A program made the translations under genes and the position numbers. The notes under the pieces were generated by a model, which was not told the origin of the DNA, did not search any database, and saw nothing but the letters and a program-made list of their open reading frames with translations. Of a stretch of DNA of 64,000 nt, positions 5,611 to 40,149 are shown piece by piece (the first letter of the stretch is position 1; each line of letters opens with the position of its first letter). The stretch comes from Acidimicrobiia bacterium UBA4744 (GTDB lineage: Bacteria; Actinomycetota; Acidimicrobiia; Spongiisociales; UBA4744): NCBI GenBank assembly GCA_002403855.1, contig DHIO01000006.1, forward strand, positions 111,356 to 175,355, written 5' to 3'.

Positions 5611-6344
5611 CGAAGGTGGCCCTCGTCACCGGTGGATCGGGCGGCATCGGCCGGGCGGTGGCTCTGGAGCTGGCGGCCCGCGGCAACCGGGTGGCCGTCA
5701 ACTACTACGTCGGCTTTGCCGAGGCGGCCGCCGAGGTGCTCGAGGAGATCGGCTCTGCCGGTGGTGAAGGCGTCACCGTCCAGGCCGACGTCAGCGACCC
5801 TCAGGACGTCGCGCAGATGTTCGCGACGGTGACCGAACAGCTCGGCCCGGTCGACATTCTCGTCAACAACGCCGGCATCACTCGGGACGGGTTGCTGCTG
5901 CGAATGGAAACCGACGACTGGGACGCCGTCCTGAGCACCAACCTTCGATCGGTCTACCTCTGCAGCAAGGCAGCGCTCCGCCCCATGGTGCGTTCCCGGT
6001 GGGGGAGGATCGTCAGCATCAGCTCTGTGGCCGGGCTCTCCGGCAACGTAGGGCAAGCCAACTACGCGGCCTCGAAGGCGGGTGTGGTGGGCTTCACCAA
6101 ATCGGTGGCGAAGGAAGTGGGGTCGAGAGGAGTCACGGTCAACGCAATCGCTCCCGGCTTCATCGATACGGATATGACGAGAAAGTTGCCCGATGAAGTA
6201 CGCGACGCGGCCTCCGGATCGATTGCGCTCGGGCGGTTCGGCCTCCCGCGTGAGGTCGCCTCGGCCGTGGGCTATCTTGCCTCGGAAGACGCCGCCTACA
6301 TCACCGGACAGGTCCTCGTTGTAGACGGAGGCATGGCACTCTAG
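5607..6344 (+). CDS. fabG: 3-oxoacyl-ACP reductase (SDR family)
   Basis: MTKVALVTGGSGGIGRAV Rossmann motif and a YAASKAG catalytic motif in a 245-aa protein. Confidence 0.9.
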   Translation: MTKVALVTGGSGGIGRAVALELAARGNRVAVNYYVGFAEAAAEVLEEIGSAGGEGVTVQADVSDPQDVAQMFATVTEQLGPVDILVNNAGITRDGLLLRMETDDWDAVLSTNLRSVYLCSKAALRPMVRSRWGRIVSISSVAGLSGNVGQANYAASKAGVVGFTKSVAKEVGSRGVTVNAIAPGFIDTDMTRKLPDEVRDAASGSIALGRFGLPREVASAVGYLASEDAAYITGQVLVVDGGMAL

Positions 6345-6353
6345 GGAGGAAAG

Positions 6354-6599
6354 ATGGATCGCTCGGAAATCGAGAACCGCATCAAGAACCTGCTCGTCAG
6401 CGAGCTTGGTTTGGACGAATCGAGAGTATCCGCGGAAGCCACGTTTGAGGAAGACCTCGAAGTGGACTCGCTGGGCGTGGTGGAACTGTTGATGGCCCTC
6501 GAAGACGAGTTCGGGGTCAAGATTCCCGACGAAGAAGCGGAAGAAATCGGCACGGTCGGCGAGGCCGTCGACGTAGTCGAAGCCAAGTTGGCCGGCTGA
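6354..6599 (+). CDS. acpP: acyl carrier protein
   Basis: 81-aa acidic protein with the phosphopantetheine attachment motif LEVDSLGVVEL. Confidence 0.95.
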   Translation: MDRSEIENRIKNLLVSELGLDESRVSAEATFEEDLEVDSLGVVELLMALEDEFGVKIPDEEAEEIGTVGEAVDVVEAKLAG

Positions 6600-6607
6600 G
6601 GCAACCG

Positions 6608-7864: not shown

Positions 7865-7926
7865 ACCAGGCCCGTTCCTGGTCCGGCGCCGTGGTGAGCT
7901 GGATCTTTGCCACCGCTGCCAAGCTG

Positions 7927-8586
7927 ATGATGCCGATCGGGGCGGTGTTGCTCCTCGCGACCCGGCGCATTCAGAACGACGATCTCGATCTACTGGCAGT
8001 GATCGCCCTGGTGATGGTGGTGGTCGGAGCGGTTCTCCTGTACCTCGTTCTTCGGTCACCGGAGCTGGCCGAACGCGTCGGCCGTGCCTTGGGCCGGTTT
8101 GTCCGCTGGGCAGCCGGTCTGTTCCGCAAGGAGGTGACCACGGACTTCGGTCGGCTGGTCTCCACGTTCAGGGAACAGTCCGCCGACGTGATAAGGAGCG
8201 GTTGGCTGGTCGGCATCAGCGCGAGCCTGACCGGTCAGCTCCTAGCCTTCCTACTGCTGTTGCTCTCACTTCGGTTTGTGGGCATCGGCGCGGATGCCCT
8301 CCATTGGCAGGTCGCCTTCGGGGCCGCTGCGGCGGTAGCGGCGGTGTCCGTCATTCCGATCTTCAATGTGCCCGGGATCGGCGAAGCCATCCTCATTATC
8401 GTCTTCAACGGCGCCGTCGGCCCCGAATCCTCAGATCAGGTCGCAGCGGCCGTCTTCGTGTTCCGGGTACTCAGTTGGCTCGCGCCTATTCCCTTTGGGG
8501 CTGTGATCTTCAGCCGATGGCGGCAGTGGGTCCGGGAGCATGGCCAGGCGGATCTGCTCGAAGCCTTCGACGAACCAGAGGACTGA
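7927..8586 (+). CDS. integral membrane protein, flippase-like/LPG-synthase-TM (UPF0104) type. The start is uncertain: GTG 7891 and 7894 or ATG 7927 are candidates, and the protein may be N-terminally truncated.
   Basis: Several hydrophobic helices (LLLATRR..., LVMVVVGAVLLYLVL, LLAFLLLLLSLRF, AAAVAAVSVIPIF). The open frame extends back to 7747, which would overlap the fabF 3' end by 118 nt. That is implausible, so a downstream start is preferred. Confidence 0.45.
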   Translation: MMPIGAVLLLATRRIQNDDLDLLAVIALVMVVVGAVLLYLVLRSPELAERVGRALGRFVRWAAGLFRKEVTTDFGRLVSTFREQSADVIRSGWLVGISASLTGQLLAFLLLLLSLRFVGIGADALHWQVAFGAAAAVAAVSVIPIFNVPGIGEAILIIVFNGAVGPESSDQVAAAVFVFRVLSWLAPIPFGAVIFSRWRQWVREHGQADLLEAFDEPED

Positions 8587-11851: not shown

Positions 11852-13036
11852 ATGGAAGCCTTCACCGAATCCGTCCTGCACGTCGACATGGACGCGTTCT
11901 TCGTTGAGGTCGAACGCCGGGAGAGGGTGGATTTGCGAGGCCGTCCGGTCGTCGTCGGAGGAACCGGCCGCCGAGGTGTCGTTGCCGCGGCATCGTACGA
12001 AGCTCGCGCATACGGTATCTATTCAGCGATGCCAATGGTCCACGCCCGGCGGTTGTGCCCATCGGTCGTCGTCCTTCCTCCCGATCACCACAAGTACCGG
12101 GCCGCTTCCGAGCAGGTCTTCCGAATCCTCCGTTCGTTCACTCCCGTCGTCGAAAGCCTCTCGGTGGATGAGGCCTTTCTTGATGTAAGGGGCCTCCGTC
12201 GCCATTACTCGGATCCGGTGGGTGTCGGTATGGGAATCCGAGACCGGCTCCGCCAGGACCTCGAGCTTCCCGCTTCGGTCGGCATCGCCGTCAACAAGTT
12301 CCTCGCCAAGCTTGCCTCCGAGGCGGCCAAGCCGGACGGTCTTCGGCACGTACCTGCCAACGAATCACTCGCGTTTCTACATCCGCTTCCGGTGCGATTG
12401 CTGTGGGGCGTCGGCGAGGCGACGCACGCATCACTGGAACGGCTGGGCGTAGCCACCGTGGGAGACCTTGCCGAGGTCCCGGAAGCGACGCTCAAGAAGC
12501 ACCTCGGCGAAGCAGCGGGAGCCCATCTTCATGAGCTCTCGTGGGGCCGCGATTCCCGCTCCGTGGTCCCTGAATCGGTGGCGAAGTCGATCTCCGTCGA
12601 GGAAACGTACGAACATGATCTCCGTGGAAAGGAATCCGTTGAAGGGGAGTTGCTCCGGCATGCCAACCGGCTCTCGAGTCGATTGCGGACTGCCGGAGTC
12701 ACCGGGAGGGCGCTGACCTTGAAGATCCGCTACGCGGACTTCACCACGTTGACGCGTTCGGTCACGTTGGAGACTCCAACGGACGTGGCCCGCGATCTCT
12801 ACCGGGCAGCTCGGGACAACCTCCTCGGAAAATTCGCGCTCGACGCCAAGCCGATCCGGTTGATCGGAGTGAGCATGGCCCGGTTGACCTCGGCGAACGC
12901 TCCGCGCCAATTGGCCGTTGATCGGCCTGCCAAATGGGACGATCTTGCCGACGCCGTCGAACATGTTCGGCAGCGATACGGTTCGGGGTCGATCGGGCCG
13001 GCGAGGTTGGTCGGAGACCCCGAACGGGAAGAATGA
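11852..13036 (+). CDS. dinB: DNA polymerase IV (Y-family translesion polymerase)
   Basis: VLHVDMDAFFVEVERRE...SYEARAYGIYSAMPM is the canonical DinB N-terminus, in a protein of 394 aa. Confidence 0.9.
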   Translation: MEAFTESVLHVDMDAFFVEVERRERVDLRGRPVVVGGTGRRGVVAAASYEARAYGIYSAMPMVHARRLCPSVVVLPPDHHKYRAASEQVFRILRSFTPVVESLSVDEAFLDVRGLRRHYSDPVGVGMGIRDRLRQDLELPASVGIAVNKFLAKLASEAAKPDGLRHVPANESLAFLHPLPVRLLWGVGEATHASLERLGVATVGDLAEVPEATLKKHLGEAAGAHLHELSWGRDSRSVVPESVAKSISVEETYEHDLRGKESVEGELLRHANRLSSRLRTAGVTGRALTLKIRYADFTTLTRSVTLETPTDVARDLYRAARDNLLGKFALDAKPIRLIGVSMARLTSANAPRQLAVDRPAKWDDLADAVEHVRQRYGSGSIGPARLVGDPEREE

Positions 13037-19668: not shown

Positions 19669-20181
19669 TCAGGATGCTCGGGCCGAGGTCACTTCCTCCG
19701 CAAACGGAATCAGTTCGATCAGAACGTCGCGGTCGGAGACGTCCTCAGAGGTGGGCACGGCAACCTCTGAGAACTGGGTGCGATAGACATCTTGTTTCGT
19801 CAACACATCTCTGATCAACATCCGGCTCGGATCGGTTGCGGGCTCAGAGAGGGCGGGCAGGTCTCCTTCGTCGGTGCTGATCACGTTGACGCCGCGTACG
19901 CGAAGGTCGTGCAGCAGGACCTCCTGCACCATCAGGTCGGCGGACAAGACTGCCAAGTCGGGGATAAGGACCGTGTCGACGTGTCCCGCCGAGACTATCC
20001 CCAGTAGGGCGCGATATCCGTCGCGGCGGTCGATGGTGTCCCCGCTCAGCGTGTCCTGACACACCGCCACCAACTGACAACGATTGTGAGCTACCCAGCG
20101 CCGGATTCGCTCTGATTGGACGAACACGGGGTCGCCGCTGTCGGGCCCCGGGGCGTCGCGTACATACCCAATCACCCGCAT
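19669..20181 (-). CDS. resolvase-like (serine-recombinase catalytic-fold) domain protein lacking an HTH, probably catalytically inactive
   Basis: MRVIGYVR...QSERIRRWVAHNRCQLVAVCQDTLSGDTIDRRDGYRALLGIVSAGHVDTVLIPDLAVLSAD...VNVISTDEG follows the resolvase N-domain pattern. The VSTxxQ serine motif is replaced by DAPGPDSGD, and the DRLSR arginines are absent. An alternative GTG start lies at 20220. Confidence 0.55.
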   Translation of the reverse strand: MRVIGYVRDAPGPDSGDPVFVQSERIRRWVAHNRCQLVAVCQDTLSGDTIDRRDGYRALLGIVSAGHVDTVLIPDLAVLSADLMVQEVLLHDLRVRGVNVISTDEGDLPALSEPATDPSRMLIRDVLTKQDVYRTQFSEVAVPTSEDVSDRDVLIELIPFAEEVTSARAS

Positions 20182-20294
20182 GGGTTGAGTTTCGTTATGG
20201 CCACCGCCTGTGTCAAGCACCTCTACGCTGCGTGGCGACGGGAAGTGGATCTGCCACCGTTGAAACGGGTCCCCTAGTAGTGTGCGCTATCCGA

Positions 20295-20810
20295 ATGGGA
20301 GTTGAGCTGACGAGGGCGCTGGTGTTGAACACCACCTACGAGCCGCTTTCGATCGTGACGTCCCGAAGGGCGGTAGTGCTCGTCATCAGCGACAAAGCGG
20401 ATGTCGTTGAGGCCCAGGACGCGCTGTGGCACGCCGAGCGGCTCTCTATTCAGGTTCCATCGGTGGTCAGACTCCGTCGGTTTGTCCGTGTCCCCTACCT
20501 GCGGCGGGTGCCGTTGACGAGGACGGCCGTGTTTGCCAGAGATGGCAACCGTTGCCAGTACTGCGGCCTTGCTGCTGATTGCCTGGATCATGTGATTCCC
20601 CGTTCGAAAGGCGGGACCCATACTTGGGAGAACGTCGTGGCTTGCTGTCGGTCGTGCAACGTCCGCAAAGCCGATCACTTCCTTCGGGAAACGTCGATGC
20701 AGCTGACCAGAAAGCCCGAGGTGCCCCGTCGCCACGATTGGGTCTACGCCAGCATCGGCTTCCCGGTCGACCCGGCCTGGCATCCCTACCTGCTGGCCCA
20801 CTCTGCGTGA
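20295..20810 (+). CDS. HNH endonuclease (McrA-like, actinobacterial conserved family)
   Basis: HNH motif CQYCG...HVIPRSKGGTHTWENVVACCRSCNVRKA. The start is taken at MGVELTRALVLNTTYEPL, with an alternative GTG at 20232. Confidence 0.8.
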   Translation: MGVELTRALVLNTTYEPLSIVTSRRAVVLVISDKADVVEAQDALWHAERLSIQVPSVVRLRRFVRVPYLRRVPLTRTAVFARDGNRCQYCGLAADCLDHVIPRSKGGTHTWENVVACCRSCNVRKADHFLRETSMQLTRKPEVPRRHDWVYASIGFPVDPAWHPYLLAHSA

Positions 20811-22966: not shown

Positions 22967-23476
22967 TCACCCTTTCGAAGGAGCCGTCCGGGTCCGCTCG
23001 AAACCGAGTTCTGAGCGGGCGATTTCCTCTGCCCAGGATTCCCATGCTTCTGCTACGGGGGGCGTGAAACTCTCTCCGAAGGTGCTGGTCTCATCCACCG
23101 CCAGACCATGGATCACCACCTCCTGCGGCATCGGGATACCCAGCCTCTCACCCATCTCGAGCACTGCGCGGAACGGGAGTGTGTGGAACGACCGGTAGCC
23201 AAATCCGTGGGGTAGGTCCTCCGGCGTAGCCCGCAGGGTGGTGCCCGGCGGGAGATCCGAGGAAACGAAAGCATCGATGATGACCACGCGGTCGTAACCG
23301 CTCATGAGTGAAAGCAGATCAACGGTCGCCACGCAGGCTTCGGCGAACTCGGCCCGATCGCCCGCCAACGCTTCAACACGACGTACCGTTCGCAGGCCCA
23401 CCCCATCGTCGGACAGGATGTCATTGCCGAGCCCAAGCACCAAGGTGCGGGGCAGGGCACCTTGGTGGTCACTCAT
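22967..23476 (-). CDS. [NiFe] hydrogenase maturation endopeptidase
   Basis: LVLGLGNDILSDDGVGLRTV is the HybD/HoxW family motif. 169 aa, immediately downstream of the large subunit. Confidence 0.85.
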   Translation of the reverse strand: MSDHQGALPRTLVLGLGNDILSDDGVGLRTVRRVEALAGDRAEFAEACVATVDLLSLMSGYDRVVIIDAFVSSDLPPGTTLRATPEDLPHGFGYRSFHTLPFRAVLEMGERLGIPMPQEVVIHGLAVDETSTFGESFTPPVAEAWESWAEEIARSELGFERTRTAPSKG

Positions 23477-29794: not shown

Positions 29795-29955
29795 AGGCTC
29801 CAGTCAGTGTGTCGCTCGTTGTCGAAGGGGTCGATCATTGCGGGGAAGGGCGGGGGAGTGCCGATAGGGGAAGACAGCCGCTTCCGGCTGGTTGATGACG
29901 CTCCGGCGTGGTGCCGGCGCCGCGAAGATCCAAGCATCTCGCGTAGTGACTCCCT

Positions 29956-29971
29956 TGTGAATCCATTCACA
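29956..29971. promoter_or_regulatory. perfect CRP-type palindrome TGTGAatccatTCACA upstream of hdrA
   Basis: Exact match to the TGTGA-N6-TCACA consensus. It sits in the 242-bp intergenic gap between the etfD-like gene and hdrA, about 165 bp upstream of the hdrA start. Confidence 0.45.
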
Positions 29972-30036
29972 ATGATGGTGGTCGTCTCCCCGGCTTGCCA
30001 GGGCCAAAAGGCTCTCCCTGGGGACTTCAAGACCCA

Positions 30037-32031
30037 TCACAAGGCCTCGGCCACCAGTTCGATGAGGTCTTTGACGGCCAGACGATCCGCGTAGCCGCCG
30101 CTCTTGGCGGCGTCCTCGAACATCACCAGGTCCTTGGGGCAGGAGACGATCAGCATTTCCACCCCCTCCAAACCGGCGGCTTCTTCGACTCTCATGGCGG
30201 CCGGGCGTTGTTGGGTGTCTCCCTCTTCCATCCAGATGCGACCTCCTCCCGCTCCACAGCACATCGCCCGATCACCATGGCGGGGCATCTCGACGAGTGT
30301 GCATCCGGCTGCTTCGATGACCCTGCGCGGCGCGTCGTACACGCCGTTGTAGCGACCGAGGTAGCACGGGTCGTGGTACGTGACCCGGTATCCCAGCTCC
30401 CGGCCTAGTCGCAGACGGCCGTCGGCGATCAACTGATCCAGCAGCTCCGAGTAGTGCAGTACCGGTCGCCCGCCGTTGATCTCCGCCGGGTATTCGTTCT
30501 TGAGGGCGTTGTAGGTATGGGGATCGGTGGTGACGATGCTCCGGAATTCGCAGGCGTTCAGAGCCGCAGCGTTGTCCTCGGCGAGCATCTCGAACAAGCC
30601 CTCTTCCCCGACCCGCCGCACATCGTTGCCGGCATTGCGTTCCGCCTCGTAGAGCAGTCCAAAATCGAGATCGGCACGGCGAAAGACCTCTGCGGTCGTC
30701 TTGGTGGCACTGGCCAACGTGGCGCTGTATGCGGCATAGTCGCCCGTGAACCAGAGGTAGTCCACGGGTTCCCGCCGGGCATCCTTGATCTTCTCCGGCA
30801 GGCCTTTGGTCCATTTGGCACGCGCCCGCTCCGACTGGCCGAACGAATTGCCGTAACGACCCAGATTGGCCATCGCTTCCTGGAGCATCCCGTCCATCCG
30901 CCCTTCCATCACGAGGTGGCGCCGCATGTCGACGATCGGCGTAACGTGCTCGATGAAGAGCGGACACTCCTGATCGCAGGCGGAGCAGGTGACGCAGGCC
31001 CAGAGGATTTCTTCGGTGATGACGTCGCCGACGAGCTCGCTCTCGAGCACGGCCCCGTTCTGCTGTCCATCACGGAGCGCTACTCCCCGCTGAATCAGGT
31101 TGTCGCGGAGGGACATGATGAGCAGCTTGGGAGAAAGGGGCGACCCGCTGGCGTAGGCGGGACACACGTCCTGACACCGACCGCATTCGGTACAGGTGTA
31201 GAAGTCGAGCAACTGGCGCCGGCGGAACTGTTCTACTGCGTTCACGCCCACGTCGCCATTGAATTCCGGTGCCGGCGGCAAGCGGCCGGGCGGGTCCAGG
31301 TTTCGCAAGAAGACGGCGGGGATCGAGGTGACCACATGAAAGTGTTTGCCCCCCGGAAGCTCGGTGAGGAAGGCGAGCACCACGATCAGGTGGATCCAGT
31401 AGGCGGCCTCTTCGACCACTTCCAACGTCGGGTCGCTGAGGCCCGACAGCACGGCACCCACGGCCGAGGCCACCGGTCGCCAGTCGGCCAGAGGATCCTC
31501 GCCGAGTTCGATGCGGATCCCATTGATCACCAGCAGGCTCACCACGATGGTCAAGATGAACGACAGGACCATCACCGCCTGGGCCCGGTGGCTTCCCTCG
31601 TAGCGGGGCGGATTGACGACCAGGCGAAGGTAGAGGGCGTACACGACGGCGATCCCTACGAGAGCAGCAAACAGATCTTGGAGGAGAGCCAACGGACCGA
31701 ATTCGCCGATCACCGGGATCACGAACCCGGGGTCGGCGAAGGCCACGAGTCCTTCGATGATCGCCTGCAAGATCGTCAGGATCAGGATGACGAAGCCCCA
31801 GAAGACGAAGAAGTGGGCGATACCCGGCGCCAGGAAGCGGAACAGGCGCAGTTGGCCTCCCACATACACGACCAGCCCCTTGATTCGCTCGATCCACCGG
31901 CCGTAAGGCGGTCCCGGTCGACCGCGTTGTAGGTTCACCCACAAGAGTTGATAGACCCGCAGGCCGAAGACGGCGAAGGAAACCACCAGGAGAAGGACGA
32001 CGACGATGGACTTGACCGCTTCGTACTCCAT
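30037..32031 (-). CDS. membrane-anchored Fe-S oxidoreductase: NarI-like di-heme cytochrome b domain fused to an HdrD-like 4Fe-4S/CCG domain (EtfD / DsrMK-HdrED-like)
   Basis: 664 aa. The N-terminus has five hydrophobic helices with conserved His (HFFVFWGF, YWIHLIV, HFHVV). Then come CTECGRCQDVCP and CVTCSACDQECP, and C-terminal CCG motifs (PCYLGR, MCCGAGGG). Confidence 0.8.
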   Translation of the reverse strand: MEYEAVKSIVVVLLLVVSFAVFGLRVYQLLWVNLQRGRPGPPYGRWIERIKGLVVYVGGQLRLFRFLAPGIAHFFVFWGFVILILTILQAIIEGLVAFADPGFVIPVIGEFGPLALLQDLFAALVGIAVVYALYLRLVVNPPRYEGSHRAQAVMVLSFILTIVVSLLVINGIRIELGEDPLADWRPVASAVGAVLSGLSDPTLEVVEEAAYWIHLIVVLAFLTELPGGKHFHVVTSIPAVFLRNLDPPGRLPPAPEFNGDVGVNAVEQFRRRQLLDFYTCTECGRCQDVCPAYASGSPLSPKLLIMSLRDNLIQRGVALRDGQQNGAVLESELVGDVITEEILWACVTCSACDQECPLFIEHVTPIVDMRRHLVMEGRMDGMLQEAMANLGRYGNSFGQSERARAKWTKGLPEKIKDARREPVDYLWFTGDYAAYSATLASATKTTAEVFRRADLDFGLLYEAERNAGNDVRRVGEEGLFEMLAEDNAAALNACEFRSIVTTDPHTYNALKNEYPAEINGGRPVLHYSELLDQLIADGRLRLGRELGYRVTYHDPCYLGRYNGVYDAPRRVIEAAGCTLVEMPRHGDRAMCCGAGGGRIWMEEGDTQQRPAAMRVEEAAGLEGVEMLIVSCPKDLVMFEDAAKSGGYADRLAVKDLIELVAEAL

Positions 32032-32047
32032 CTCGGCTGCCTGTTCC

Positions 32048-33022
32048 CTACCCTCCTTTGGCTGCTCGCACCCGTTCGATCAGCACCGGCAGAAGGTCGA
32101 GCAAGTCGACTTCCGATCCGTACTGGGCGACGTCGAAGATCGGCGCTTCCGGGTCGGTATTGACGGCGATCGTCAAATCACTGTCGCTCATCCCCTCGAC
32201 GTGCTCAGGGGCTCCGCTGATACCCAGGGCCAGATAGACGTCGGGTTTGACCCGCTTCCCGGACTTGCCGACCATGCGCGTGGTGGGGAGCCAGCCTTGA
32301 TCTACGACCGGGCGGGACGCACAGACTGCGCCACCAAGCGTCTCGGCTAGTTCCTCGGCTAGCTCCACGTTGTCTTCGTTGGCTATGCCACGTCCGATCG
32401 CCACCAGGATGGGAGTGGTGGAGATGTCGATGTCCTCCGCCTTGGGCTCTTGATACCCCGCAAAGGCGACCCGTCCGCTTCCCAGCGGCGAAACGGAGGT
32501 TCTGGTCACCTCCGGCGCGGTTTCCCCCCTTCCTTGTTCCGGCTTGTAGCCGCCCGGCACCATGGTGATCAGGGCGTTTGGTTCGGGAATGTCGCCTTCG
32601 ACGAGGATCTTCCCACCGCAGATCTGGCTGATGAATCGCAGCCTGCCGTTCGCCGCGTCGACACTCCGACACCGGCTCACCAGCGGCATGCTCAGGCGGG
32701 CGGACAGAACCCCGGCTACCTCGGCTCCCATCGATGTGTCGCCGAAGAGCACGCAGCGGGGCGGATCGCCTCCGATCAAATCCGCCAGGATGACGTTGTA
32801 GTGCTCCGGGTTGAAGTCGGCAAGGGCGGGGTCGTCGATGTACACAACTCGATCTGCCGCCAGATCACCGGCCAGGGTCTCGCCGTCATGACCGAGCAAC
32901 ACGGCCGCGACGCCACCACCGGTTCCGGTAGCCAGCCGGCGGGCGGCGGCCACTGCCACGTAGGTGATGTCCGCGACTTGCCCCCGCAGGTGCTCGACGA
33001 TGACGTGTATGTCTTGGCTCAT
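32048..33022 (-). CDS. etfA: electron transfer flavoprotein alpha subunit
   Basis: 324 aa. Contains the C-terminal FAD-binding region PDVYLALGISGAPEHVEGM (ALGISGA...H) typical of EtfA/FixB. Confidence 0.85.
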   Translation of the reverse strand: MSQDIHVIVEHLRGQVADITYVAVAAARRLATGTGGGVAAVLLGHDGETLAGDLAADRVVYIDDPALADFNPEHYNVILADLIGGDPPRCVLFGDTSMGAEVAGVLSARLSMPLVSRCRSVDAANGRLRFISQICGGKILVEGDIPEPNALITMVPGGYKPEQGRGETAPEVTRTSVSPLGSGRVAFAGYQEPKAEDIDISTTPILVAIGRGIANEDNVELAEELAETLGGAVCASRPVVDQGWLPTTRMVGKSGKRVKPDVYLALGISGAPEHVEGMSDSDLTIAVNTDPEAPIFDVAQYGSEVDLLDLLPVLIERVRAAKGG

Positions 33023-33031
33023 CGTTCCCCC

Positions 33032-33799
33032 TCACGCCTTCCCCAGCTCTCGGAGGAGATCGACGATCCTCCCCGCGACCTCATCCTCATCGCCGGTGAT
33101 CATGGTCGCCCGTTCGGCGGTCTCCGGCTTGAACATCGAATCGACCATCGGTCCTCCGGTGGTATCAAGATCCGGTGCCGCCTGCTCGTCGACGGCGGCC
33201 GTCTTCATCGCCTGACGGATTCGGCTGATGGCGACGTAGCGGGGTGGCGATTCCGCTGCTTGAACCCCGAGCACTGCCGGCATCTCGACGTCCATCTCGG
33301 CGATCAGACCGCCCGGGTATTCCTTGCGGACCCGGCATCGACCGTTGATAGGAGCGATCCCCGACACGTAACCCACGTAGGGCATACCGACGTATTCGGC
33401 GAGCAGCGGACCCAGTGACCCATCCAGATCGTTGTGGGCCTGTACACCTACCAGCACCAGATCTGGCTCGAGGATTCGAACGGTGGTGGCGTAGAACCGC
33501 GCCATGGCATGATTGTTGACATTGACCCCGTAGTCGACTCCGGTCAGCTTGATGAGCCGGTCGACCCCTTTGGCCGATGAGGCAAACAGGACATCATCGA
33601 CTCCCTCGCCGTCCAGGCTGATAACCGATACCGTCCCGGAGAGGCTCTCCTTGAGTAGGAGAGCCTGTTCGAGGGCGTGCTCATCGACCTCGTTGAGAAT
33701 GAATCGGAGCCAGGTCGTGTCGAGGGCCGTCCCGCCGTCATCGATCTCCAGTTCTTCAACCAGGTCGGGAACGAGCTTGACCGGTACCACGATGTTCAT
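33032..33799 (-). CDS. etfB: electron transfer flavoprotein beta subunit
   Basis: MNIVVPVKLVPD N-terminus typical of EtfB/FixA, in a 255-aa protein. Confidence 0.85.
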   Translation of the reverse strand: MNIVVPVKLVPDLVEELEIDDGGTALDTTWLRFILNEVDEHALEQALLLKESLSGTVSVISLDGEGVDDVLFASSAKGVDRLIKLTGVDYGVNVNNHAMARFYATTVRILEPDLVLVGVQAHNDLDGSLGPLLAEYVGMPYVGYVSGIAPINGRCRVRKEYPGGLIAEMDVEMPAVLGVQAAESPPRYVAISRIRQAMKTAAVDEQAAPDLDTTGGPMVDSMFKPETAERATMITGDEDEVAGRIVDLLRELGKA

Positions 33800-33803
33800 G
33801 ACT

Positions 33804-35024
33804 TCACCCCTGCTCGATCAATGAATCCACCAACAACTCGGCAATGTCCTTGACCACGAGGTGCTTGGCCCCTGTCACCGTCTTGGTGGCATCCTCGAAA
33901 CGAGGCATCTCGTAAGGACAGGTCACGGCCAGGATGTCGGCCCGGACGTCGATGGCTTCCTGCACTCGAATCTCGGACAACCGGAAGTGAGCCTTCTCCC
34001 ACCGGAAACCGTCGAGCCACATCCCACCCCCCCCTCCACCGCAGCAGATGCTGGTTTCCCGGGTGTGCAACATTTCTACCAATTCGACTCCGGGAACAGC
34101 GGTCAGCAACCGCCGGGGATCCTCGTAGATGCCGTTGGCCCGTCCCAGATAGCAGGGATCGTGGAAAGCCACCCGGGCCGGGATCTCTCGAGTGAGCAAG
34201 GGTTGGAGCCGATCGAGCCGCCCTGCCAGGAATTGGCTGTAGTGGGCCACCGGGTAGGAGATACCCAACGCCGGGTACTCGTTCTTGAGAGCGTTGAACG
34301 CGTGAGGATCGGTGGTCAGGATTTCTTCGAATTCGTACTTGCCGAATGCCCTGGCGTTCTTCTCGGCCAGCATCTCGAACAGCCCCGTCTCACCCGCCAG
34401 GCGTTGAGAATCCCCGTCGCTGTTCTCTTCAGGGCCGAGTATGCCGTAGTCGACGTCGAGGCGGTTGAGAACCCTGGCCAGCGCTTGTGAAGCTTGGCGG
34501 CCGCGCGGATGGTACGAGGCGTAGTCGCCCACGAACCAAAGGACTTCCACCGGGCGCTTGATCTTGCTGAGGATGGGGACCGCGGGTTCGATGTCCATCG
34601 CCCAATCGGCGCGCCGCCGCGGTGGCTCACCGAGGGCGTTTCCATAGCGCTGCGAGTTCTCGAGGGCTTCCTGGAGTTCGGCGGGGATGCTGCCGGTCAA
34701 CAGCATTTCCTCCTTGGCCCGGGTCATCAGGCCGTTGGTGAGGGGGATCTGCGCCGGACAAATCTGTGCACAGGCGTAGCAGGAAACACAGAGCCAGAGC
34801 GAGTCGACTCCCATCACCTTTTCGAACATCCCCGCTCGCATGGCGGAGATCATCTTGTGGGGAGGGAAATCCATCAAGTAGCCAAACGGACAGATGCCGC
34901 TACACGCGGCACACTGCAGGCAAGCGCGAATTCGCCGGCCCTCTTCCACTTCTTCCAGGCTGAGACTGAATGAATCCGTGAAGCCGGCCGCGTCGGCGGC
35001 CTCCATCGCCGGTGCTGCCATCAT
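33804..35024 (-). CDS. soluble HdrD/GlcF-like Fe-S oxidoreductase (two 4Fe-4S motifs plus two CCG domains)
   Basis: CLQCAACSGICP, CVSCYACAQICP, PCYLGR and ICCGGGGGG motifs. The start is taken at the ATGATG at 35024, 5 nt after GAAAGGTG. The ORF extends to 35048 with a TTG. Confidence 0.75.
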   Translation of the reverse strand: MMAAPAMEAADAAGFTDSFSLSLEEVEEGRRIRACLQCAACSGICPFGYLMDFPPHKMISAMRAGMFEKVMGVDSLWLCVSCYACAQICPAQIPLTNGLMTRAKEEMLLTGSIPAELQEALENSQRYGNALGEPPRRRADWAMDIEPAVPILSKIKRPVEVLWFVGDYASYHPRGRQASQALARVLNRLDVDYGILGPEENSDGDSQRLAGETGLFEMLAEKNARAFGKYEFEEILTTDPHAFNALKNEYPALGISYPVAHYSQFLAGRLDRLQPLLTREIPARVAFHDPCYLGRANGIYEDPRRLLTAVPGVELVEMLHTRETSICCGGGGGGMWLDGFRWEKAHFRLSEIRVQEAIDVRADILAVTCPYEMPRFEDATKTVTGAKHLVVKDIAELLVDSLIEQG

Positions 35025-35192
35025 TCGCACCTTTCTGTCGATAGTCAATCCGTCCTATGTCGCGCCTCGCCACCCTCGAGTTCTGTGACGGTCAGGGATG
35101 GCCTCATGGACGTAAGTGTCTTGCGTGACGGGGCGGTATCCAACCTCTCCACAACGACTCCAGGACCTTCCTTCGGAGTATGCGGTCGTTCT

Positions 35193-35216
35193 TGTGAATT
35201 CTTTCACTAGAGTGAA
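35193..35216. promoter_or_regulatory. CRP/FNR-type operator candidate in the divergent promoter region: TGTGAattcttTCAC overlapping the perfect palindrome TTCACtagaGTGAA
   Basis: Read directly from the sequence. 14 of 16 positions match TGTGA-N6-TCACA. Centred about 160 bp from both divergent start codons (35024 and 35358). Confidence 0.4.
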
Positions 35217-35357: not shown

Positions 35358-37082
35358 GTGAACCACGAGCCCCTCACCATCATGTGTGCTGCCGCAGTTT
35401 GTGCCGACCTGCTCCGGTTGCGCGACACCCTCGAGAAGCTCTACGGAGAGTCGGCTCGCGTGGAGGCTCACCACAGTGGGGAAGGCTTGTGCCACGCGTT
35501 AGAGGCCCATCTCGCCTGTGGAGATCTCGTTCCCGTGGTGGTCGTCGACTGCCGGCTGGCCGACGGTACGGGAGCCGACGCCCTCGTTGATCTCGCCGAT
35601 CGCGATGCCAGCGGTGCCACCCGCAAGGTCCTCATTCTCGCTGATGATGAGACCGCCGAGACGGATCGAATCCTGGCGAAAGTGGCGCTCGATGGTGTCC
35701 TCACCCGGCCATGGACCATCCACGAGTTGCGGACTACCGTCGAGCGACTCGTCGATGAATACCTCAGAGAGGTAGACCCCGAGGCGGATAGAAGATTCGC
35801 TGCGTTCACTATGGGTCCCACCGGTTCCACCGAGCGTGACGCGCAACGCACTGGGGGAGACCTCCTGCAACGTTTCGATGAGCAGGTTCGGCGCGACCGA
35901 GCCAAACAACGAAGCTTCCTCGAGGATCGCGATCTCAGAGACAACGAAGTCGAACAGGCAATGATCGATGAGATGGAGCGGGTCCTCGGGTATCCCCCGC
36001 GGAAACGACTGCCGGCCGGAAGCCTGATCCTGACTGAAGGCGAATCGATCGATGGAATCACTGTGGTTTTGGACGGCGAGGTTCGCTTGTTCCGGGAGGT
36101 GGACGGCCGGGAGATCGTGTTTCACCATCTCACCGCCGGGCGAATTATCGGGTTGATGTCGCTAGCTCAATCACGCCCGGCAGTTTTCAATGTCGAGGCC
36201 GAAACAGAAGTCACCGTGATGCCGGTCACGCTGGAGCAACTCGATTCGGCGTTGCGAGCCAGTCCCAGCCTGTCCGCACACTTCGTGTCTGTCTTGGTGA
36301 GATCATTGGCGCGACGCAATCTGCGCAGCATCGAACAACAGCTGCAAATCCGAGAGTTCGCCACGAGCCGGATCAAGGAATCGGAGCGGCTGGCGGTGGT
36401 GGGTCAACTAGCTGCCGGAGTGGCTCACGAGTTGAACAACCCTTTGCAGGGAATCGTCGCCTATTCCCACTTGCTGTTGGAGAAGCACGCCGAAGACGGA
36501 CGCCACCGATCATCTCTGGAGAAGATCGTCGCCCAGGCCGATCGATGTATCGCCATCGTGAGGGCTCTGCTCGATTTCTCGCGTCCGACCGCGCCGAAGA
36601 AGCAATCCTCTGACGTGAACTCGCTGCTGACCGACTGCATAGAGCTGGTCGAGGAACAAGCTCTCTTTCTCAACATCGCGATCGACCGGGACTTGGAACC
36701 GACCTTGCCGCTGGTCATGGTCGATCCATCGCAGATACAGCAGGTGTTCGTCAACTTGATCATCAATGCGGCCGAAGCGATGGACGGCGACGGACGCCTG
36801 GAGATAACCACTCGCCATATGGATAGCGAGGTCGAGATCGAGTTCACGGACAGTGGACCGGGGATCAACCCCGAAGACTTGGACCGGGTGTTCGACCCAT
36901 TCTTCTCGACCAAGGAGGCAGGCCATGGGACGGGTTTGGGCCTGGCGATCAGTTACGGGATAGTCCGCGAGCACGGAGGTCGCATCACTGCGGCGAGCGA
37001 GGAAGTAGCGGGAGCAACATTTGTCGTTCGGCTCCCGATTACGGTCGATCGGCCCTGGAGCAACAACATGGAGCAGGAGTAG
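35358..37082 (+). CDS. cytoplasmic sensor histidine kinase with N-terminal receiver-like domain and a cyclic-nucleotide-binding (CAP-effector) domain
   Basis: 574 aa with no TM segments. Contains a cNMP-binding-like region (LILTEGESIDGITVVLDGEVRLFREVDGREIVFHHLTAGRIIGLMSL), a HisKA H-box (AAGVAHELNNPLQGIV), and HATPase N/G boxes (NLIINAAEA, DSGPGI, GTGLGLAIS). Confidence 0.8.
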   Translation: MNHEPLTIMCAAAVCADLLRLRDTLEKLYGESARVEAHHSGEGLCHALEAHLACGDLVPVVVVDCRLADGTGADALVDLADRDASGATRKVLILADDETAETDRILAKVALDGVLTRPWTIHELRTTVERLVDEYLREVDPEADRRFAAFTMGPTGSTERDAQRTGGDLLQRFDEQVRRDRAKQRSFLEDRDLRDNEVEQAMIDEMERVLGYPPRKRLPAGSLILTEGESIDGITVVLDGEVRLFREVDGREIVFHHLTAGRIIGLMSLAQSRPAVFNVEAETEVTVMPVTLEQLDSALRASPSLSAHFVSVLVRSLARRNLRSIEQQLQIREFATSRIKESERLAVVGQLAAGVAHELNNPLQGIVAYSHLLLEKHAEDGRHRSSLEKIVAQADRCIAIVRALLDFSRPTAPKKQSSDVNSLLTDCIELVEEQALFLNIAIDRDLEPTLPLVMVDPSQIQQVFVNLIINAAEAMDGDGRLEITTRHMDSEVEIEFTDSGPGINPEDLDRVFDPFFSTKEAGHGTGLGLAISYGIVREHGGRITAASEEVAGATFVVRLPITVDRPWSNNMEQE

Positions 37083-37086
37083 CTTG

Positions 37087-38232
37087 ATGGCTATGGCACT
37101 CGAGGATGGTCGCTCGAGGATCCTCATCATCGACGATGAGCAGGTGGTGCTCGAATCCTGCATAGAGATCTTGCTCGACCAGCCCTACGACGTCGCCACC
37201 GCGTCCAGCGGCGCTCGCGGTCTGGAATTCATGGAGGAATTCCGGCCCGATCTGGTGTTCGTGGACTTGAAGATGCCCGGCCTCTCCGGCCTGGAAGTCC
37301 TCGAAGCTATCAACCGGGATGACCCGACAGTCGTGACGGTGGTCATCACCGGGTACGCCACCGTGGACTCGGCGATCGAGGCCATGAAGCTAGGAGCGTA
37401 CGATTTCATCCCCAAGCCGTTTACGCCCGACCAGTTCCGGGTGATCACCGCACGCAGTCTGGAAAAGCGCAAGCTCGTTCTCGAGACGATCGCGCTACGC
37501 CGTGAAAAGGAGATGCTTCGGGAGAACTTCGCCGCGATCGTTAGCCATGAGCTGAAATCACCGCTGAGTGCCGTTCAGCAGAATCTCTTCGTCTTGGCAC
37601 ATCAACTCTCTCCCGTCACTACCGAGGACCAGCGAGTGCAACTCGAGCGCATGAAGTCACGGATCGGTGATCTTCTGGACCTAGTGGATCGATGGTTGCG
37701 CAGCGTCTCGGTCGACCTGGACGGCATCCGAGAACGATTCGAGACCCTGCCTCTCTCTGTTCCGATCACCAAGGCAGTCGAGTCCGTGCAACCCCAAGCC
37801 GTTCGCAAAGACGTCGAGATCGTCGTACAAGAACGCGCCGGGAGTGTCTACGGCCACGAAGGGGTTCTTACCGAAGCCCTGACCAACATCATCGGCAATG
37901 CGGTGAAGTACTCGTATGAGGGCGGCACCGTCACCATCACGACGAAGCAACTCGACGACCGAGTCAGGGTCGATGTGACGGATACCGGAGTGGGTATTTC
38001 GGAAGACGACCGAGTTCACATCTTCGATGACTTCTACCGAGGGGACGTCGGCATGAGCCGCCAGAGCGGCGCCGGACTCGGGCTGGCCATCAGTCGGAGG
38101 ATCATTGAGGCCCACAACGGATCCGTGTCGGTCGAGAGCGAGTTGGGGAGAGGCACCACCTTCACCATCCTCCTTCCCACCGAGGCCCCTGAGCCTCCCG
38201 TTTCACGTTTACCTGAGAGGAGCGAGATCTAA
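37087..38232 (+). CDS. hybrid response regulator-histidine kinase (N-terminal receiver, then HisKA and HATPase)
   Basis: Receiver domain (RILIIDDEQ...LVFVDLKMPGLSG...AYDFIPKPF), H-box IVSHELKSPL, and HATPase (NIIGNAVKYS, DTGVGI, GAGLGLAISRRI). The start is 5 nt after the upstream kinase stop. Confidence 0.8.
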   Translation: MAMALEDGRSRILIIDDEQVVLESCIEILLDQPYDVATASSGARGLEFMEEFRPDLVFVDLKMPGLSGLEVLEAINRDDPTVVTVVITGYATVDSAIEAMKLGAYDFIPKPFTPDQFRVITARSLEKRKLVLETIALRREKEMLRENFAAIVSHELKSPLSAVQQNLFVLAHQLSPVTTEDQRVQLERMKSRIGDLLDLVDRWLRSVSVDLDGIRERFETLPLSVPITKAVESVQPQAVRKDVEIVVQERAGSVYGHEGVLTEALTNIIGNAVKYSYEGGTVTITTKQLDDRVRVDVTDTGVGISEDDRVHIFDDFYRGDVGMSRQSGAGLGLAISRRIIEAHNGSVSVESELGRGTTFTILLPTEAPEPPVSRLPERSEI

Positions 38233-38248: not shown

Positions 38249-38674
38249 ATGAACCCGACGAAACGGCTACTCATCGTCGACGACGATCCAGACTTCGCCG
38301 GTGCGATCAGCGAGATCCTCGAATCGGCCGGCTACGAGACGGACATAACGCACAACCCCAAGGAGGGATGGGCGGCGCTCAAGACGAACAAGTACGACCT
38401 TCTCCTGCTGGACATCATGATGGGTCGGGGCGCCGAGGGTGTGATGATGGCCCGTAAGATCCGCAAGGATGAATCGTTGCGCGAGATGCCGGTGCTCATC
38501 ATCACCGGTTTGCGCGAGCAGATTGCTTTTCTCTTCCCGGGCCAAGCCATCCATCCGGGATTCGTGCCGGTCGACGAATTGGTCGAGAAGCCGGTGGAGC
38601 CTGAACTTCTTCTCGACCGGGTTGGTGCGCTGATCGAAGCCTCCGAGGCGCGATCGCCGGGGGGTGATGAGTAA
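38249..38674 (+). CDS. single-domain response regulator (CheY-like receiver)
   Basis: MNPTKRLLIVDDDPDF...YDLLLLDIMMGRG...KIRK, 141 aa, with a GCAGGGAGG RBS upstream. Confidence 0.8.
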   Translation: MNPTKRLLIVDDDPDFAGAISEILESAGYETDITHNPKEGWAALKTNKYDLLLLDIMMGRGAEGVMMARKIRKDESLREMPVLIITGLREQIAFLFPGQAIHPGFVPVDELVEKPVEPELLLDRVGALIEASEARSPGGDE

Positions 38675-39247
38675 GTGTTTCCTGCCACGACTTCACCCCA
38701 ATTCAGCATGGAAGTCATGAACCTTCTCTACGCAGGCGACGGGAAACCGCCGAACCTCTGCGTGCATTGTTCGGTCTGCTCGGCTACCTGCCCGGCTGTG
38801 GAGTTCATGGACCACTCCCCGCGCATGCTCTTGGCCATGATCAACGCCGGGATGAAGGACGAGGTGCTTGCCAGCAACACGTTCTGGACTTGTGCCTCGT
38901 GCTTTGCCTGCTCGGAGCGGTGTCCCCAAGGGATACACGTAGCCCAGATCATGTATGCACTGAAGCGTTACTCGCTGTGGCACAACCGGTACCCGGAAGG
39001 GTTGGTTGGGCCCGATTTCTCACGGCGTTTCGTGAAGACCATCCTTGCCAACGGAAAGTCGTACGAGCCCGGCTACGCCCCTGCCTTTATCTGGGAGGGG
39101 GGGCTTCCGGGGCTTCTGTACGAGATGCTGGGAGCCGTCAAGCTATTGCGGCGCGGGCGACTCCAGTTGATTCCCAAGAAGATCAAACGCGTGGACAACT
39201 TCCGCCAGATGATCGGGCGGATCATACCCCTGGAGGGTATCTCGTGA
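38675..39247 (+). CDS. hdrC: heterodisulfide reductase subunit C-like (two 4Fe-4S motifs)
   Basis: CVHCSVCSATCP and CASCFACSERCP motifs in a protein of about 190 aa. The GTG start lies directly after the response-regulator stop, preceded by GGGGTGATGAG. Confidence 0.75.
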   Translation: MFPATTSPQFSMEVMNLLYAGDGKPPNLCVHCSVCSATCPAVEFMDHSPRMLLAMINAGMKDEVLASNTFWTCASCFACSERCPQGIHVAQIMYALKRYSLWHNRYPEGLVGPDFSRRFVKTILANGKSYEPGYAPAFIWEGGLPGLLYEMLGAVKLLRRGRLQLIPKKIKRVDNFRQMIGRIIPLEGIS

Positions 39248-40149
39248 AGACGTACGCCTACTACCCCGGTTGTTCCCTCGAGTCGATGGCGGTCAGCTAC
39301 CACGTGTCCGCCGTGGAGGTTGCTCATCTTCTCGGCGTGACGCTGGTGGAGATCGAGGATTGGAACTGTTGTGGTGCCACCGCATATTCCCACGTGGACG
39401 AGCTGCTGGCACAGGTCTTGAGTGCCCGCAACCTCGCCCTGGCCGAGAAAGAGCAACGGCCGGATCTGGTCGCTCCGTGCAGCGGTTGTTTCAAGAACCT
39501 CTATTTCGCCAATGAGCACATGCTCGAAGACGCCGATCTGATGGACCACATGAACTTCGCCCTGGAGGCTGATGATCTCAGTTATTCCGGCGGTGTCACC
39601 GTCCATCACCTGATGGATTTGTTCGTGAGGGAGGTCGGCCTCGATGCGATCCGCGAAAAGGTGGAAGATCCGCTCGAAGGCCTGCGCGTTGCCCCGTACT
39701 ACGGGTGTCAGATGACCCGCCCGAGGAAGCCGGGGGAGGGTCTGGAGGATGTGGAAGGGCCGCGGTTCTTCGAGGAGTTGGTCGGGGCGCTCGGGGCGAT
39801 ACCGGTCGACTATCCCTATCGGATGCGCTGCTGTGGGGCCTCGTTGATAGCGACCAGCCGGCAGGCGGCCCTCTCCATGCTGCGGGACTTGCTGCAGAGT
39901 GCCATGGACGCCGGCGCGGACGTGATTGCCACGTCATGCCCGCTGTGCCAGATCAACCTGGAGGTCTACCAGTCCGAGGTCAACCGGGAACTCGGCACGG
40001 AGTTCTCCATGCCGATCATGTACTTCACCCAGTTGATGGGCCTCGCACTGGGGATCAAGCCGAAGCAGTTGGGGATCGGTAGCGAGGTCGTCCCGGTCGC
40101 TCCGGTCTTGGCCTGTCGCCAGAGCCAGCGGACTGCAGTGGCCGGCTGA
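39244..40149 (+). CDS. hdrB: heterodisulfide reductase subunit B-like (two CCG domains)
   Basis: VKTYAYYPGCSLE N-terminus with the CCG motifs NCCGATAY and RCCGASL. 301 aa. The GTG start overlaps the hdrC stop (GTGA). Confidence 0.8.
   Translation: MKTYAYYPGCSLESMAVSYHVSAVEVAHLLGVTLVEIEDWNCCGATAYSHVDELLAQVLSARNLALAEKEQRPDLVAPCSGCFKNLYFANEHMLEDADLMDHMNFALEADDLSYSGGVTVHHLMDLFVREVGLDAIREKVEDPLEGLRVAPYYGCQMTRPRKPGEGLEDVEGPRFFEELVGALGAIPVDYPYRMRCCGASLIATSRQAALSMLRDLLQSAMDAGADVIATSCPLCQINLEVYQSEVNRELGTEFSMPIMYFTQLMGLALGIKPKQLGIGSEVVPVAPVLACRQSQRTAVAG

Follow-up and report, generated by a model that had tools for sequence, protein, structure and literature searches.

HdrA-based electron bifurcation is understood in methanogens, where the high-potential acceptor is the heterodisulfide CoM-S-S-CoB. 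In many bacteria with Hdr/Mvh genes the nature of this acceptor is, to our knowledge, an open question, and bacteria of the kind treated here are not known to make a CoM-S-S-CoB substrate. Here we analyse such a locus in a 64,000-nucleotide stretch of the genome of Acidimicrobiia bacterium UBA4744 (contig DHIO01000006.1, positions 111,356 to 175,355; the whole stretch is called the window in the following). Four adjacent genes, encoding a soluble iron-sulfur (FeS) protein, the two subunits of an electron-transfer flavoprotein (ETF; EtfB and EtfA) and an ETF:menaquinone oxidoreductase (EMO, also known as EtfD), lie beside genes for a hydrogenase/heterodisulfide reductase complex of the MvhADG-HdrABC type. 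The best explanation for the four genes is that they form one portable electron-export cassette, the same as that which ends the type II sHdr clusters (shdrC1B1AHB3-etfAB-emo), and this cassette may well connect Hdr/Mvh with the menaquinone pool.

Two of the closest described systems are compared first. With the type II sHdr cluster (Justice 2014; Cao 2018; Kümpel 2024, via PMC11094781) the window shares the module order B3, etfB, etfA, emo and a B3 protein with two cubane sites and one non-cubane site, and the ETF and EMO of the window are nearer to the type II versions than to other EMO systems. It differs in the absence of sHdrC1, B1, the short sHdrA, sHdrH, LbpA, the lipoate ligase and DsrE/TusA; instead, the cassette neighbours a long classical HdrA (with an NfnB-like insertion), MvhD, MvhGA, a classical 300-aa HdrB, HdrC and a two-component system. 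The hdr-etf-tusA-lbpA cluster of T. roseum has the same gene composition as the type II cluster and is 45-fold up during persistence; the paper describing it gives no sHdr type. With the methanogen MvhADG-HdrABC complex (5ODC, 8RVU, 7BKB) the comparison is direct for HdrA and HdrB, which match the solved subunits, while HdrC, MvhD and the NiFe subunits of the window were assigned by family models and gene calls. Here the differences are an NfnB/GltD-like insertion of ~500 aa in HdrA and the fact that the complex is encoded together with an ETF/EMO quinone module. Some relatives of the window differ further from the methanogen system, in that they have hdrA-mvhDGA and B3 but no hdrBC nearby.

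The four genes of the cassette run in the same direction on the minus strand (30037-35048; Table 1) and are separated by gaps of 4, 9 and 16 nt. The preliminary description had reported etfBA flanked by a soluble FeS/CCG protein and a membrane NarI-HdrD fusion at this place, and the open reading frame (ORF) listing, independent gene calls on the public contig and Pfam agree with it and with its coordinates; in each of the two flanking genes Pfam finds a 4Fe-4S dicluster domain and one CCG domain. For the soluble FeS gene ATG 35024 or TTG 35048 are alternative starts. Its co-transcription with etfBA-emo is likely; the counts of promoter-like and terminator-like sites inside the block do not exceed the shuffle expectation and are hence uninformative. 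For comparison, 80 loci with EMO homologues were picked by EMO similarity from species-representative genomes, and three loci were added by exact-protein look-up (loci are cited below by L numbers where they have to be told apart).

The membrane protein of 664 aa matches the cryo-EM structure of M. smegmatis EtfD (9OJN_A) with E=2.7e-101 over residues 10-644. Within this match residues 10-316 align to 9OJN residues 11-337, and hydropathy predicts five hydrophobic, transmembrane (TM)-like segments in residues 1-223. The earlier reading of this gene as an EtfD is supported, the protein being of the EtfD/EMO type with a NarI-like cytochrome b fused to an HdrCB-like domain. Like the M. smegmatis enzyme (MsEMO; Courbon et al. 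2026, PMC13083937), the protein combines a five-TM cytochrome b with HdrC-like and HdrB-like domains, and the two agree to ~43% over the soluble part. For the mapping of cofactor ligands the MsEtfD sequence was transcribed from the 9OJN alignment, in which all published ligands fell at their stated positions, validating the numbering; the ligands were then mapped onto the window EMO and 79 homologues (n=80).

An alignment of the heme-ligating histidines and of the CCG cysteines had been proposed as the check on the membrane protein, and a lack of these histidines as its refutation; the histidines are present. The His pair of the proximal heme b corresponds to H73 (Ms H78, Sa H87, where Sa is the Syntrophus enzyme discussed below; 78/80) and H232 (Ms H241, Sa H251; 80/80), and the third EMO histidine, at the distal site, to H214 (Ms H223, Sa H233; 80/80). 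Among the Arg and Phe contacts, R136 (Ms Arg137) is found in 80/80, R285 (Ms Arg306) in 79/80, F80 (Ms Phe85) in 78/80 and F221 (Ms Phe230) in 79/80; the equivalent of Arg150, where the alignment is ambiguous, is the sole exception to the conservation of EMO ligands in 78-80 of the 80 proteins. All eight cysteines of the two cubane clusters (C280/C283/C286/C356 and C290/C346/C349/C352) are present in every one of the 80. The non-cubane site D2/FeS3 consists of C556, C591, C592 and C631 with the capping H505 (79-80/80), the cluster type not being readable from sequence; in MsEMO the ligands of this proximal non-cubane [4Fe-4S] cluster are C637, C672, C673, C709, C712 and H583. MsEMO and the window EMO differ in several respects. 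The fifth Cys of D2 is replaced by D634, a position with Asp in 62/80 homologues. The four Cys of the linear [3Fe-4S] cluster D1 (the distal cluster, FeS4) are replaced by D431, N466, D503 and T506, with Cys in just 4/80. Finally, the disordered C-terminal tail of ~30 kDa is absent (664 vs 1042 aa).

The same loss of the distal-cluster D1 cysteines was reported for B. subtilis FadF and P. aeruginosa DgcB (Courbon et al. 2026, PMC13083937), which we compared by their published description. Thus, members of the EtfD family with just one non-cubane cluster are already known, and the distal cluster does not define the EMO family. FadF and DgcB are tied to beta-oxidation or dimethylglycine catabolism and not to Hdr, and no soluble B3 partner is described for them. 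The tri-heme SaEMO of Syntrophus aciditrophicus (Kosian et al. 2026, bioRxiv 10.64898/2026.08.18.745454) belongs to the same family and has the same domain order, the three conserved His and a non-bifurcating ETF encoded alongside. It keeps a distal [4Fe-5S] cluster, in contrast to the window EMO, and the Desulfobacterota loci that we examined have the order emo-etfB-etfA and no B3. In mycobacteria etfD (rv0338c) and etfAB (rv3028c/rv3029c) have distant locus numbers, whereas in the window emo adjoins etfBA, and from this adjacency quinone reduction by the window EMO is predicted to depend on ETF. Since the solved relatives carry one heme (MsEMO; PMC13083937) or three hemes (SaEMO), a di-heme reading of the NarI type was ruled out. 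The heme number of the window EMO is not readable from its sequence, because MsEMO keeps the third His without a heme. We assign the 664-aa protein to the EMO/EtfD family, as a member with a single non-cubane cluster.

The soluble protein of 405 aa has no TM segment according to hydropathy, and it shares 37% identity with the soluble part of the EMO next to it and 32% with MsEtfD. Its two CxxCxxCxxxCP motifs provide two cubane sites (C34/C37/C40/C88 and C44/C78/C81/C84), and C290, C326, C327, C368 and H240 make up a non-cubane site, whose fifth Cys is replaced by E371 (48/48 orthologues have Glu there). None of the distal-cluster positions carries a Cys, the residues being D166, S201/D202, D238 and A241, and the first CCG half is Cys-free. 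The cofactor residues are invariant across 35 database homologues of ~401 aa, and since the gene retains every one of them, a pseudogene is ruled out. Confidence in an AlphaFold model of the protein is limited to residues ~140-405; among solved folds the model is most similar to 9OJN (E=1.3e-17), with LutA and HdrB next. The assignments GlcF, GlpC and TfrB were rejected, since the NCBIfam scores are far under the cut-offs (for TfrB 115 bits vs 385) and the best match in both sequence and fold is EtfD.

The protein has the features by which sHdrB3 was defined, namely as a fusion of sHdrC2 and sHdrB2 that binds one non-cubane cluster and is followed by etfAB-emo (Tanabe et al. 2024, PMC11094781): it is an HdrC2-like and HdrB2-like fusion with one non-cubane site, and etfAB-emo is directly downstream. 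In a neighbour-joining distance tree without bootstrap, 48/48 soluble paralogues fall into one clade, separate from the 80 EMOs. This clade takes in 12 proteins from verified type II sHdr loci (L045, L052-L054, L056-L060, L066, L068 and L069; the full Pfam check of type II gene content was made on L059). Because all soluble paralogues, including those of type II sHdr loci, form one clade, we place the window protein in the sHdrB3 lineage and regard the four genes as a B3-EtfBA-EMO cassette, in both cases from the sequences. The preliminary description had taken this gene for an additional HdrD/GlcF-like protein in the same operon. It is indeed intact and tightly linked to etfB, but it belongs to the sHdrB3 lineage and is not a generic HdrD/GlcF. 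The B3 proteins linked to Mvh and to sHdr differ by ~50% in sequence and fall into separate identity bands, the window B3 being 48-50% identical to those of the type II loci.

Several peculiarities of B3 were seen in addition. The lost distal-cluster Cys are replaced by Asp in both proteins, at D166, D202 and D238 of B3 and at D431 and D503 of EMO. These Asp are invariant in B3 (35/35; 46-48 of 48) and frequent in EMO (63 and 76 of 80). The position of the fifth Cys in the remaining cluster is occupied by Glu in every B3 and by Asp in most EMO; these carboxylates might bind a metal or act as cluster ligands. In four Chloroflexota loci, L004, L007 (5968-8235), L029 and L031, the B3 frame stays open upstream, without a stop, through an HTH-WYL-WCX regulator domain; the resulting ORFs of 741-755 aa may be regulator-B3 fusions or two genes with an internal second start. 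In L082, also from Chloroflexota, B3 is called as an HdrC-like gene (133 aa, 7039-7440) and a CCG gene (260 aa, 7463-8245), which is either a split version or the result of a frameshift or assembly error.

The ETF between the two FeS proteins is apparently of the non-bifurcating (AMP-site) type. The best solved relative of EtfB is the AMP-binding, non-bifurcating W3A1 ETF beta (1O94_C, E=1.3e-28). The window EtfB has GVNVNNHAMA and GVQAHNDLDGSLG at the positions at which the bifurcating C. difficile EtfB (5OL2_B) has FAGADTWATS and GRQAIDGDTAQVG, and every cassette EtfB, linked to Mvh or to sHdr, lacks the GADTxAT and DGDTAQVG segments of 5OL2_B. We take these segments, following the ETF-classification literature, to mark the bifurcating-FAD site of EtfB. 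EtfA, which matches 5OL2_A, 4KPU_A and 1O94_D, has Ser or Gln at the position of Arg146 of A. fermentans EtfA. The ETF docked on SaEMO carries AMP and has a swinging FAD that reaches a distance of 12-13 Å from the non-cubane clusters (Kosian et al. 2026, bioRxiv 10.64898/2026.08.18.745454).

The comparison of relatives revealed two sequence groups in which the soluble paralogue lies ahead of etfB-etfA-emo. The first comprises 46 loci with an EMO at least 60% identical to that of the window. In this group B3-etfB-etfA lies upstream of emo in 36/36 loci with enough upstream sequence. When at least 9 kb are available on both sides, MvhD or NiFe genes are present in 18/19 loci and HdrB or HdrC in 13/19. 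In the second, distant group (EMO ~40%, soluble protein 48-50% identical), from Acidimicrobiia, other Actinomycetota and Planctomycetota, the cassette is surrounded by two DsrE, a 244-aa dicluster protein and a 420-aa CCG protein, a 354-aa HdrA-like flavoprotein, a 259-aa protein without Pfam match and, downstream, a GcvH-like lipoate-binding protein with a lipoate-protein ligase. This gene set is the published type II sHdr cluster. Among the B3 loci of lower identity 12/14 are type II sHdr and Mvh is found in 0. The relation of the cassette to the type II version is also seen in the identities, which for the window EMO are 40-44% to the type II cassette vs 36-39% to the emo-etfBA clusters of Desulfobacterota, for EtfB 40-46% vs 31-35% and for EtfA 42-49% vs 36-40%.

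Linkage to Hdr/Mvh is kept in three gene orders. In many Chloroflexota (e.g. L082) the genes for B3-etfBA-emo, a histidine kinase, a hybrid response-regulator/histidine kinase, a response regulator and hdrC-hdrB-hdrA-mvhDGA follow each other on one strand. A compact order, B3-etfB-etfA-emo-hdrA-mvhD-mvhG-mvhA, is found in L026, L036 and L076, with no hdrBC within 10 kb of the cluster in any of the three; in L026 the called hdrA ORF overlaps the end of emo. The third, divergent arrangement is that of the window, L083 and L042. The persistence of the linkage through three gene orders is good evidence of a functional association. Gene identities, cofactor ligands, the homology of the cassette and its conserved linkage to Hdr/Mvh genes are established by these comparisons.

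The Hdr/Mvh genes of the window form a complete MvhADG-HdrABC set, with HdrA, HdrB, HdrC, MvhD and the small and large NiFe subunits at one locus, from which a hydrogenase/heterodisulfide reductase of this type is predicted. HdrA matches methanogen HdrA (8RVU_a) with E=2.6e-208 in two stretches, which are split by the NfnB/GltD-like insertion at residues ~290-785 (NfnB 4YLF_B, E=3e-98 over residues 295-703). This NAD(P)H-FAD-2x[4Fe-4S] module is confined to Acidimicrobiia-type loci (window, L002 and L083), and the Chloroflexota relatives have an ordinary HdrA of 670-686 aa. An HdrA with a GltD-like insertion is already known as the "HdrL" of Desulfobacterium. HdrB matches methanogen HdrB (7BKB_B) with E=7.8e-54 and all ten CCG cysteines aligned. 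It is the only catalytic-type CCG protein of the locus, B3 and EMO having one His-capped site each, so that the three CCG catalytic modules of the preliminary description become one catalytic module, HdrB, and two electron-wire modules, B3 and EMO.

On the same strand as emo, hdrL follows downstream after a gap of 245 nt. On the other side, a divergent region of 336 nt separates the B3 operon from the sensor-kinase operon, and hdrCB (38717-40149, +) lies on its far side, beyond three two-component-system genes. After hdrB come mraZ, rsmH and a cell-division cluster. Every gene of the locus is intact.

Table 1. Features of the cassette and its surroundings in the window (positions of the 64,000-nucleotide stretch).
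Feature	Position	Strand	Basis or remark
Hydrogenase maturation protease, HycI family	22967..23476	-	Pfam HycI
[NiFe]-hydrogenase large subunit, MvhA-like, 487 aa	23485..24948	-	Pfam NiFeSe_Hases/HoxH on gene call
[NiFe]-hydrogenase small subunit, MvhG-like, 329 aa	24945..25934	-	Pfam Oxidored_q6 on gene call
MvhD, 138 aa	25963..26379	-	Pfam FlpD E=1e-49 and gene call
HdrA with NfnB/GltD-like NAD(P)H-flavin insertion ("HdrL"-like), 1133-1134 aa	26390..29794	-	NCBIfam HdrA2/HdrA and PRK12771
CRP/FNR-like palindrome TGTGAATCCATTCACA	29957..29970	.	In the emo-hdrL gap, upstream of hdrL
EMO/EtfD-type ETF:menaquinone oxidoreductase, 664 aa	30037..32031	-	9OJN_A match
EtfA, 324 aa, FAD-binding subunit, without N-terminal ferredoxin domain	32048..33022	-	Pfam ETF and ETF_alpha
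EtfB, 255 aa	33032..33799	-	Pfam ETF
sHdrB3-like soluble FeS protein, 405 aa	33804..35021	-	Pfam Fer4_8/Fer4_17 and CCG
Second copy of the palindrome	35194..35207	.	In the divergent region, upstream of the B3 operon
Sensor histidine kinase with cNMP-binding domain	35358..37082	+	Pfam cNMP_binding, HisKA, HATPase_c
Hybrid response-regulator/histidine kinase	37087..38232	+	Pfam Response_reg, HisKA, HATPase_c
Single-domain response regulator	38249..38674	+	Gene call with Response_reg
HdrC, 176 aa	38717..39247	+	Pfam and NCBIfam CoB_CoM_SS_C
HdrB, 301 aa, two complete five-Cys CCG motifs	39244..40149	+	TIGR03288, 217 bits

Based on these observations we propose a wiring in series, in which electrons would pass in either direction between Hdr/Mvh, B3, ETF, EMO and menaquinone, and we give this reading a probability of about one half. 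B3 would be an HdrC and HdrB fusion pared to an electron wire, with two cubane clusters and one His-capped non-cubane cluster, and by analogy with the proposal for type II sHdr it would dock on the HdrA-type flavoprotein complex in place of an HdrBC pair. The non-bifurcating ETF would swing its FAD domain between the non-cubane clusters of B3 and EMO and thereby shuttle single electrons, and within EMO the two cubane clusters and then heme b would carry the electrons on to menaquinone. The cytoplasmic partner, here and in many Chloroflexota, would be a classical bifurcation-type HdrA with MvhADG and usually HdrBC, and not sHdr/LbpA. In this way the locus could couple H2 (at Mvh), the HdrA flavin, ferredoxin or NAD(P)H (at the NfnB-like insertion) and possibly a disulfide (at HdrB) to menaquinone. 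What we infer in this scheme is the physical contact between B3 and HdrA, the shuttle role of the ETF, the physiological substrate and the direction in which electrons flow, either from H2 to quinone as the high-potential acceptor or the other way.

As an extension of the series wiring it is tempting to speculate, though only tentatively, that MvhADG-HdrA bifurcates with menaquinone, reached via B3, ETF and EMO, as the high-potential acceptor that replaces the heterodisulfide. H2 oxidation could then drive the reduction of ferredoxin, or of NAD(P)+ via the NfnB-like insertion, or, in reverse, quinol/ETF and ferredoxin could confurcate to H2. Since menaquinone, for which a value of about -74 mV is quoted, suits as a high-potential acceptor, a bifurcation driven by H2 that reduces both ferredoxin and quinone is an attractive possibility. 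In the compact relatives L026, L036 and L076, B3 would then be the sole HdrBC-type partner of HdrA, because no HdrBC is encoded nearby.

Several points weigh against the wiring in series. Conservation of a neighbourhood shows functional association and not physical wiring. The high-identity loci are akin, mostly from Anaerolineae-type Chloroflexota plus one Acidimicrobiia lineage, and are not independent samples; moreover, Mvh is missing within 10 kb in L011, a locus with full flanks. In loci with HdrBC the canonical partner of HdrA is already there, and a binding of B3 to HdrA may not occur. Confidence is low for the model of the HdrC-like N-terminal half of B3 (predicted local distance difference test, pLDDT, <50 for residues 1-133). 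Lastly, EMO and ETF are established in beta-oxidation elsewhere (PMC13083937), and acyl-CoA dehydrogenases could lie outside the window.

This last point leads to the alternative that survives best, a fork in beta-oxidation. Here acyl-CoA dehydrogenases would reduce the ETF, whose electrons leave either through EMO to menaquinone or through B3 to Hdr/Mvh, for example as H2 by confurcation with ferredoxin in syntrophic fatty-acid oxidation. Such a fork is consistent with the experimental role of EMO/EtfD as the ETF:menaquinone oxidoreductase needed for beta-oxidation (PMC13083937), with the non-bifurcating, housekeeping type of the ETF, and with an Hdr/Mvh hydrogenase that adjoins the cassette; the ETF-facing non-cubane cluster is kept by both B3 and EMO, and both could in principle accept from one ETF. 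However, no acyl-CoA dehydrogenase or other beta-oxidation gene was found by Pfam among 40 ORFs of the window (~3/4 of those called), nor was any found among the neighbours scanned in L026 and L036 or listed for L082. In the loci examined B3-etfBA-emo occurs solely beside Hdr-type systems, either type II sHdr or Hdr/Mvh, while the beta-oxidation-type clusters of Desulfobacterota have no B3. Further, in the work on type II sHdr the cassette was interpreted as a path from Hdr to quinone and not as a fork (PMC11094781). The fork thus fits less well than the series wiring and we consider it rather unlikely. The earlier suggestion that ETF electrons can be routed either to the quinone pool or into the soluble Hdr complex therefore stands with respect to a functional link to the Hdr complex, which is conserved in three gene orders, and loses ground with respect to the choice between two outlets.

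According to a further alternative, the cassette would be one part of a type II sHdr system that is dispersed, with its core (shdrC1B1AH, lbpA, dsrE/tusA) encoded elsewhere in the genome, and the closeness of the cassette to Hdr/Mvh would be incidental or purely regulatory. In the literature B3-etfAB-emo is indeed defined solely within type II sHdr, a system frequent in Chloroflexota and Actinobacteriota (PMC11094781). Yet, with sHdrC1, B1, A, H, LbpA, sLpl and DsrE of L059 as tblastn queries, we obtained 0 matches in the window and none within 10 kb in any of the 19 high-identity relatives with at least 9 kb of flanks, 18 of which have Mvh. In true type II loci the sHdr core genes directly abut B3, and the divergence between Mvh-linked and sHdr-linked B3, in the separate identity bands given above, also speaks against a dispersed system. 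We regard a dispersed system as very unlikely, and the reading of the whole locus as a type II sHdr system was rejected, the core, LbpA and DsrE genes being without a match in the window and in these 19 relatives. A bifurcation like that of FixABCX/EtfABCX, with NADH reducing the FAD of EtfB, the high-potential electron going through EMO to menaquinone and the low-potential one through B3 in the role of FixX to ferredoxin, is hardly tenable: a quinone reductase and a small FeS protein do flank etfBA in a four-gene set formally parallel to fixABCX, and EtfA scores slightly higher against bifurcating EtfA (5OL2_A, 4KPU_A) than against non-bifurcating ones, but the AMP-type EtfB without the two bifurcation segments, the Ser or Gln of EtfA and the AMP in the SaEMO-associated ETF all speak against it.

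The regulation of the locus may involve the palindrome GTGAA-N4-TTCAC (TGTGA-N6-TCACA type), of which exactly two occurrences are found in 64 kb vs 0.05 expected. Both are at the same place in L002 (6816-6829 and 12159-12172) and in L083 (6820-6833 and 12062-12075). That one rare motif stands ahead of both the B3 operon and hdrL-mvh counts in favour of the wiring in series. A sensor kinase with a cNMP-binding domain is encoded beside the palindrome, and in L026 two cNMP-binding proteins are encoded after mvhA. An ORF of ~80 aa (29804-30049, -) was considered as a gene; no Pfam family matches it and the conserved palindrome lies inside it, which makes a regulatory region more probable than a gene. 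Its counterpart in L083 is called as an 82-aa gene (11995-12243). Regulators adjacent to the cassette vary by lineage and include the two-component system, WYL and BTAD. In L026 a class II fumarase and a 1038-aa BTAD-AAA-TPR (MalT/AfsR-like) regulator are encoded upstream of the compact cluster (2024-3661 and 3734-6850).

The nearest relatives carry Acidimicrobiia labels as metagenome-assembled genomes. The window EMO is 60-72% identical to EMOs of Chloroflexota vs ~40% to other EMOs of Acidimicrobiia. A resolvase gene (19669-20220, -) lies ~2.7 kb beyond the hydrogenase maturation protease gene, where the window has a further ORF (20232-20810, +), and HNH and resolvase genes are found on the corresponding side in L083 (21046-21995). 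This suggests a movement of the whole island between phyla.

EMO/EtfD and the B3-etfAB-emo module are already known. In the searchable literature we found no account of B3-etf-emo attached to a classical HdrA/MvhADG, including clusters without HdrBC, although an earlier mention in Kümpel et al. 2024 is possible. If menaquinone is the high-potential acceptor of MvhADG-HdrA, as speculated above, this would be an undescribed link from HdrA-type bifurcation to the quinone pool, widespread in Anaerolineae-type Chloroflexota and in some Acidimicrobiia. A cassette that wires HdrA/Mvh to menaquinone would provide a concrete, testable acceptor in Chloroflexota and Acidimicrobiia that abound in sediments, groundwater and digesters. 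Last but not least, thousands of database entries named "(Fe-S)-binding protein" or "Fe-S oxidoreductase" could get a sharper annotation, and the B3-ETF-EMO module of sulfur oxidisers would be a general plug-in that joins cytoplasmic Hdr-type complexes to the respiratory chain.

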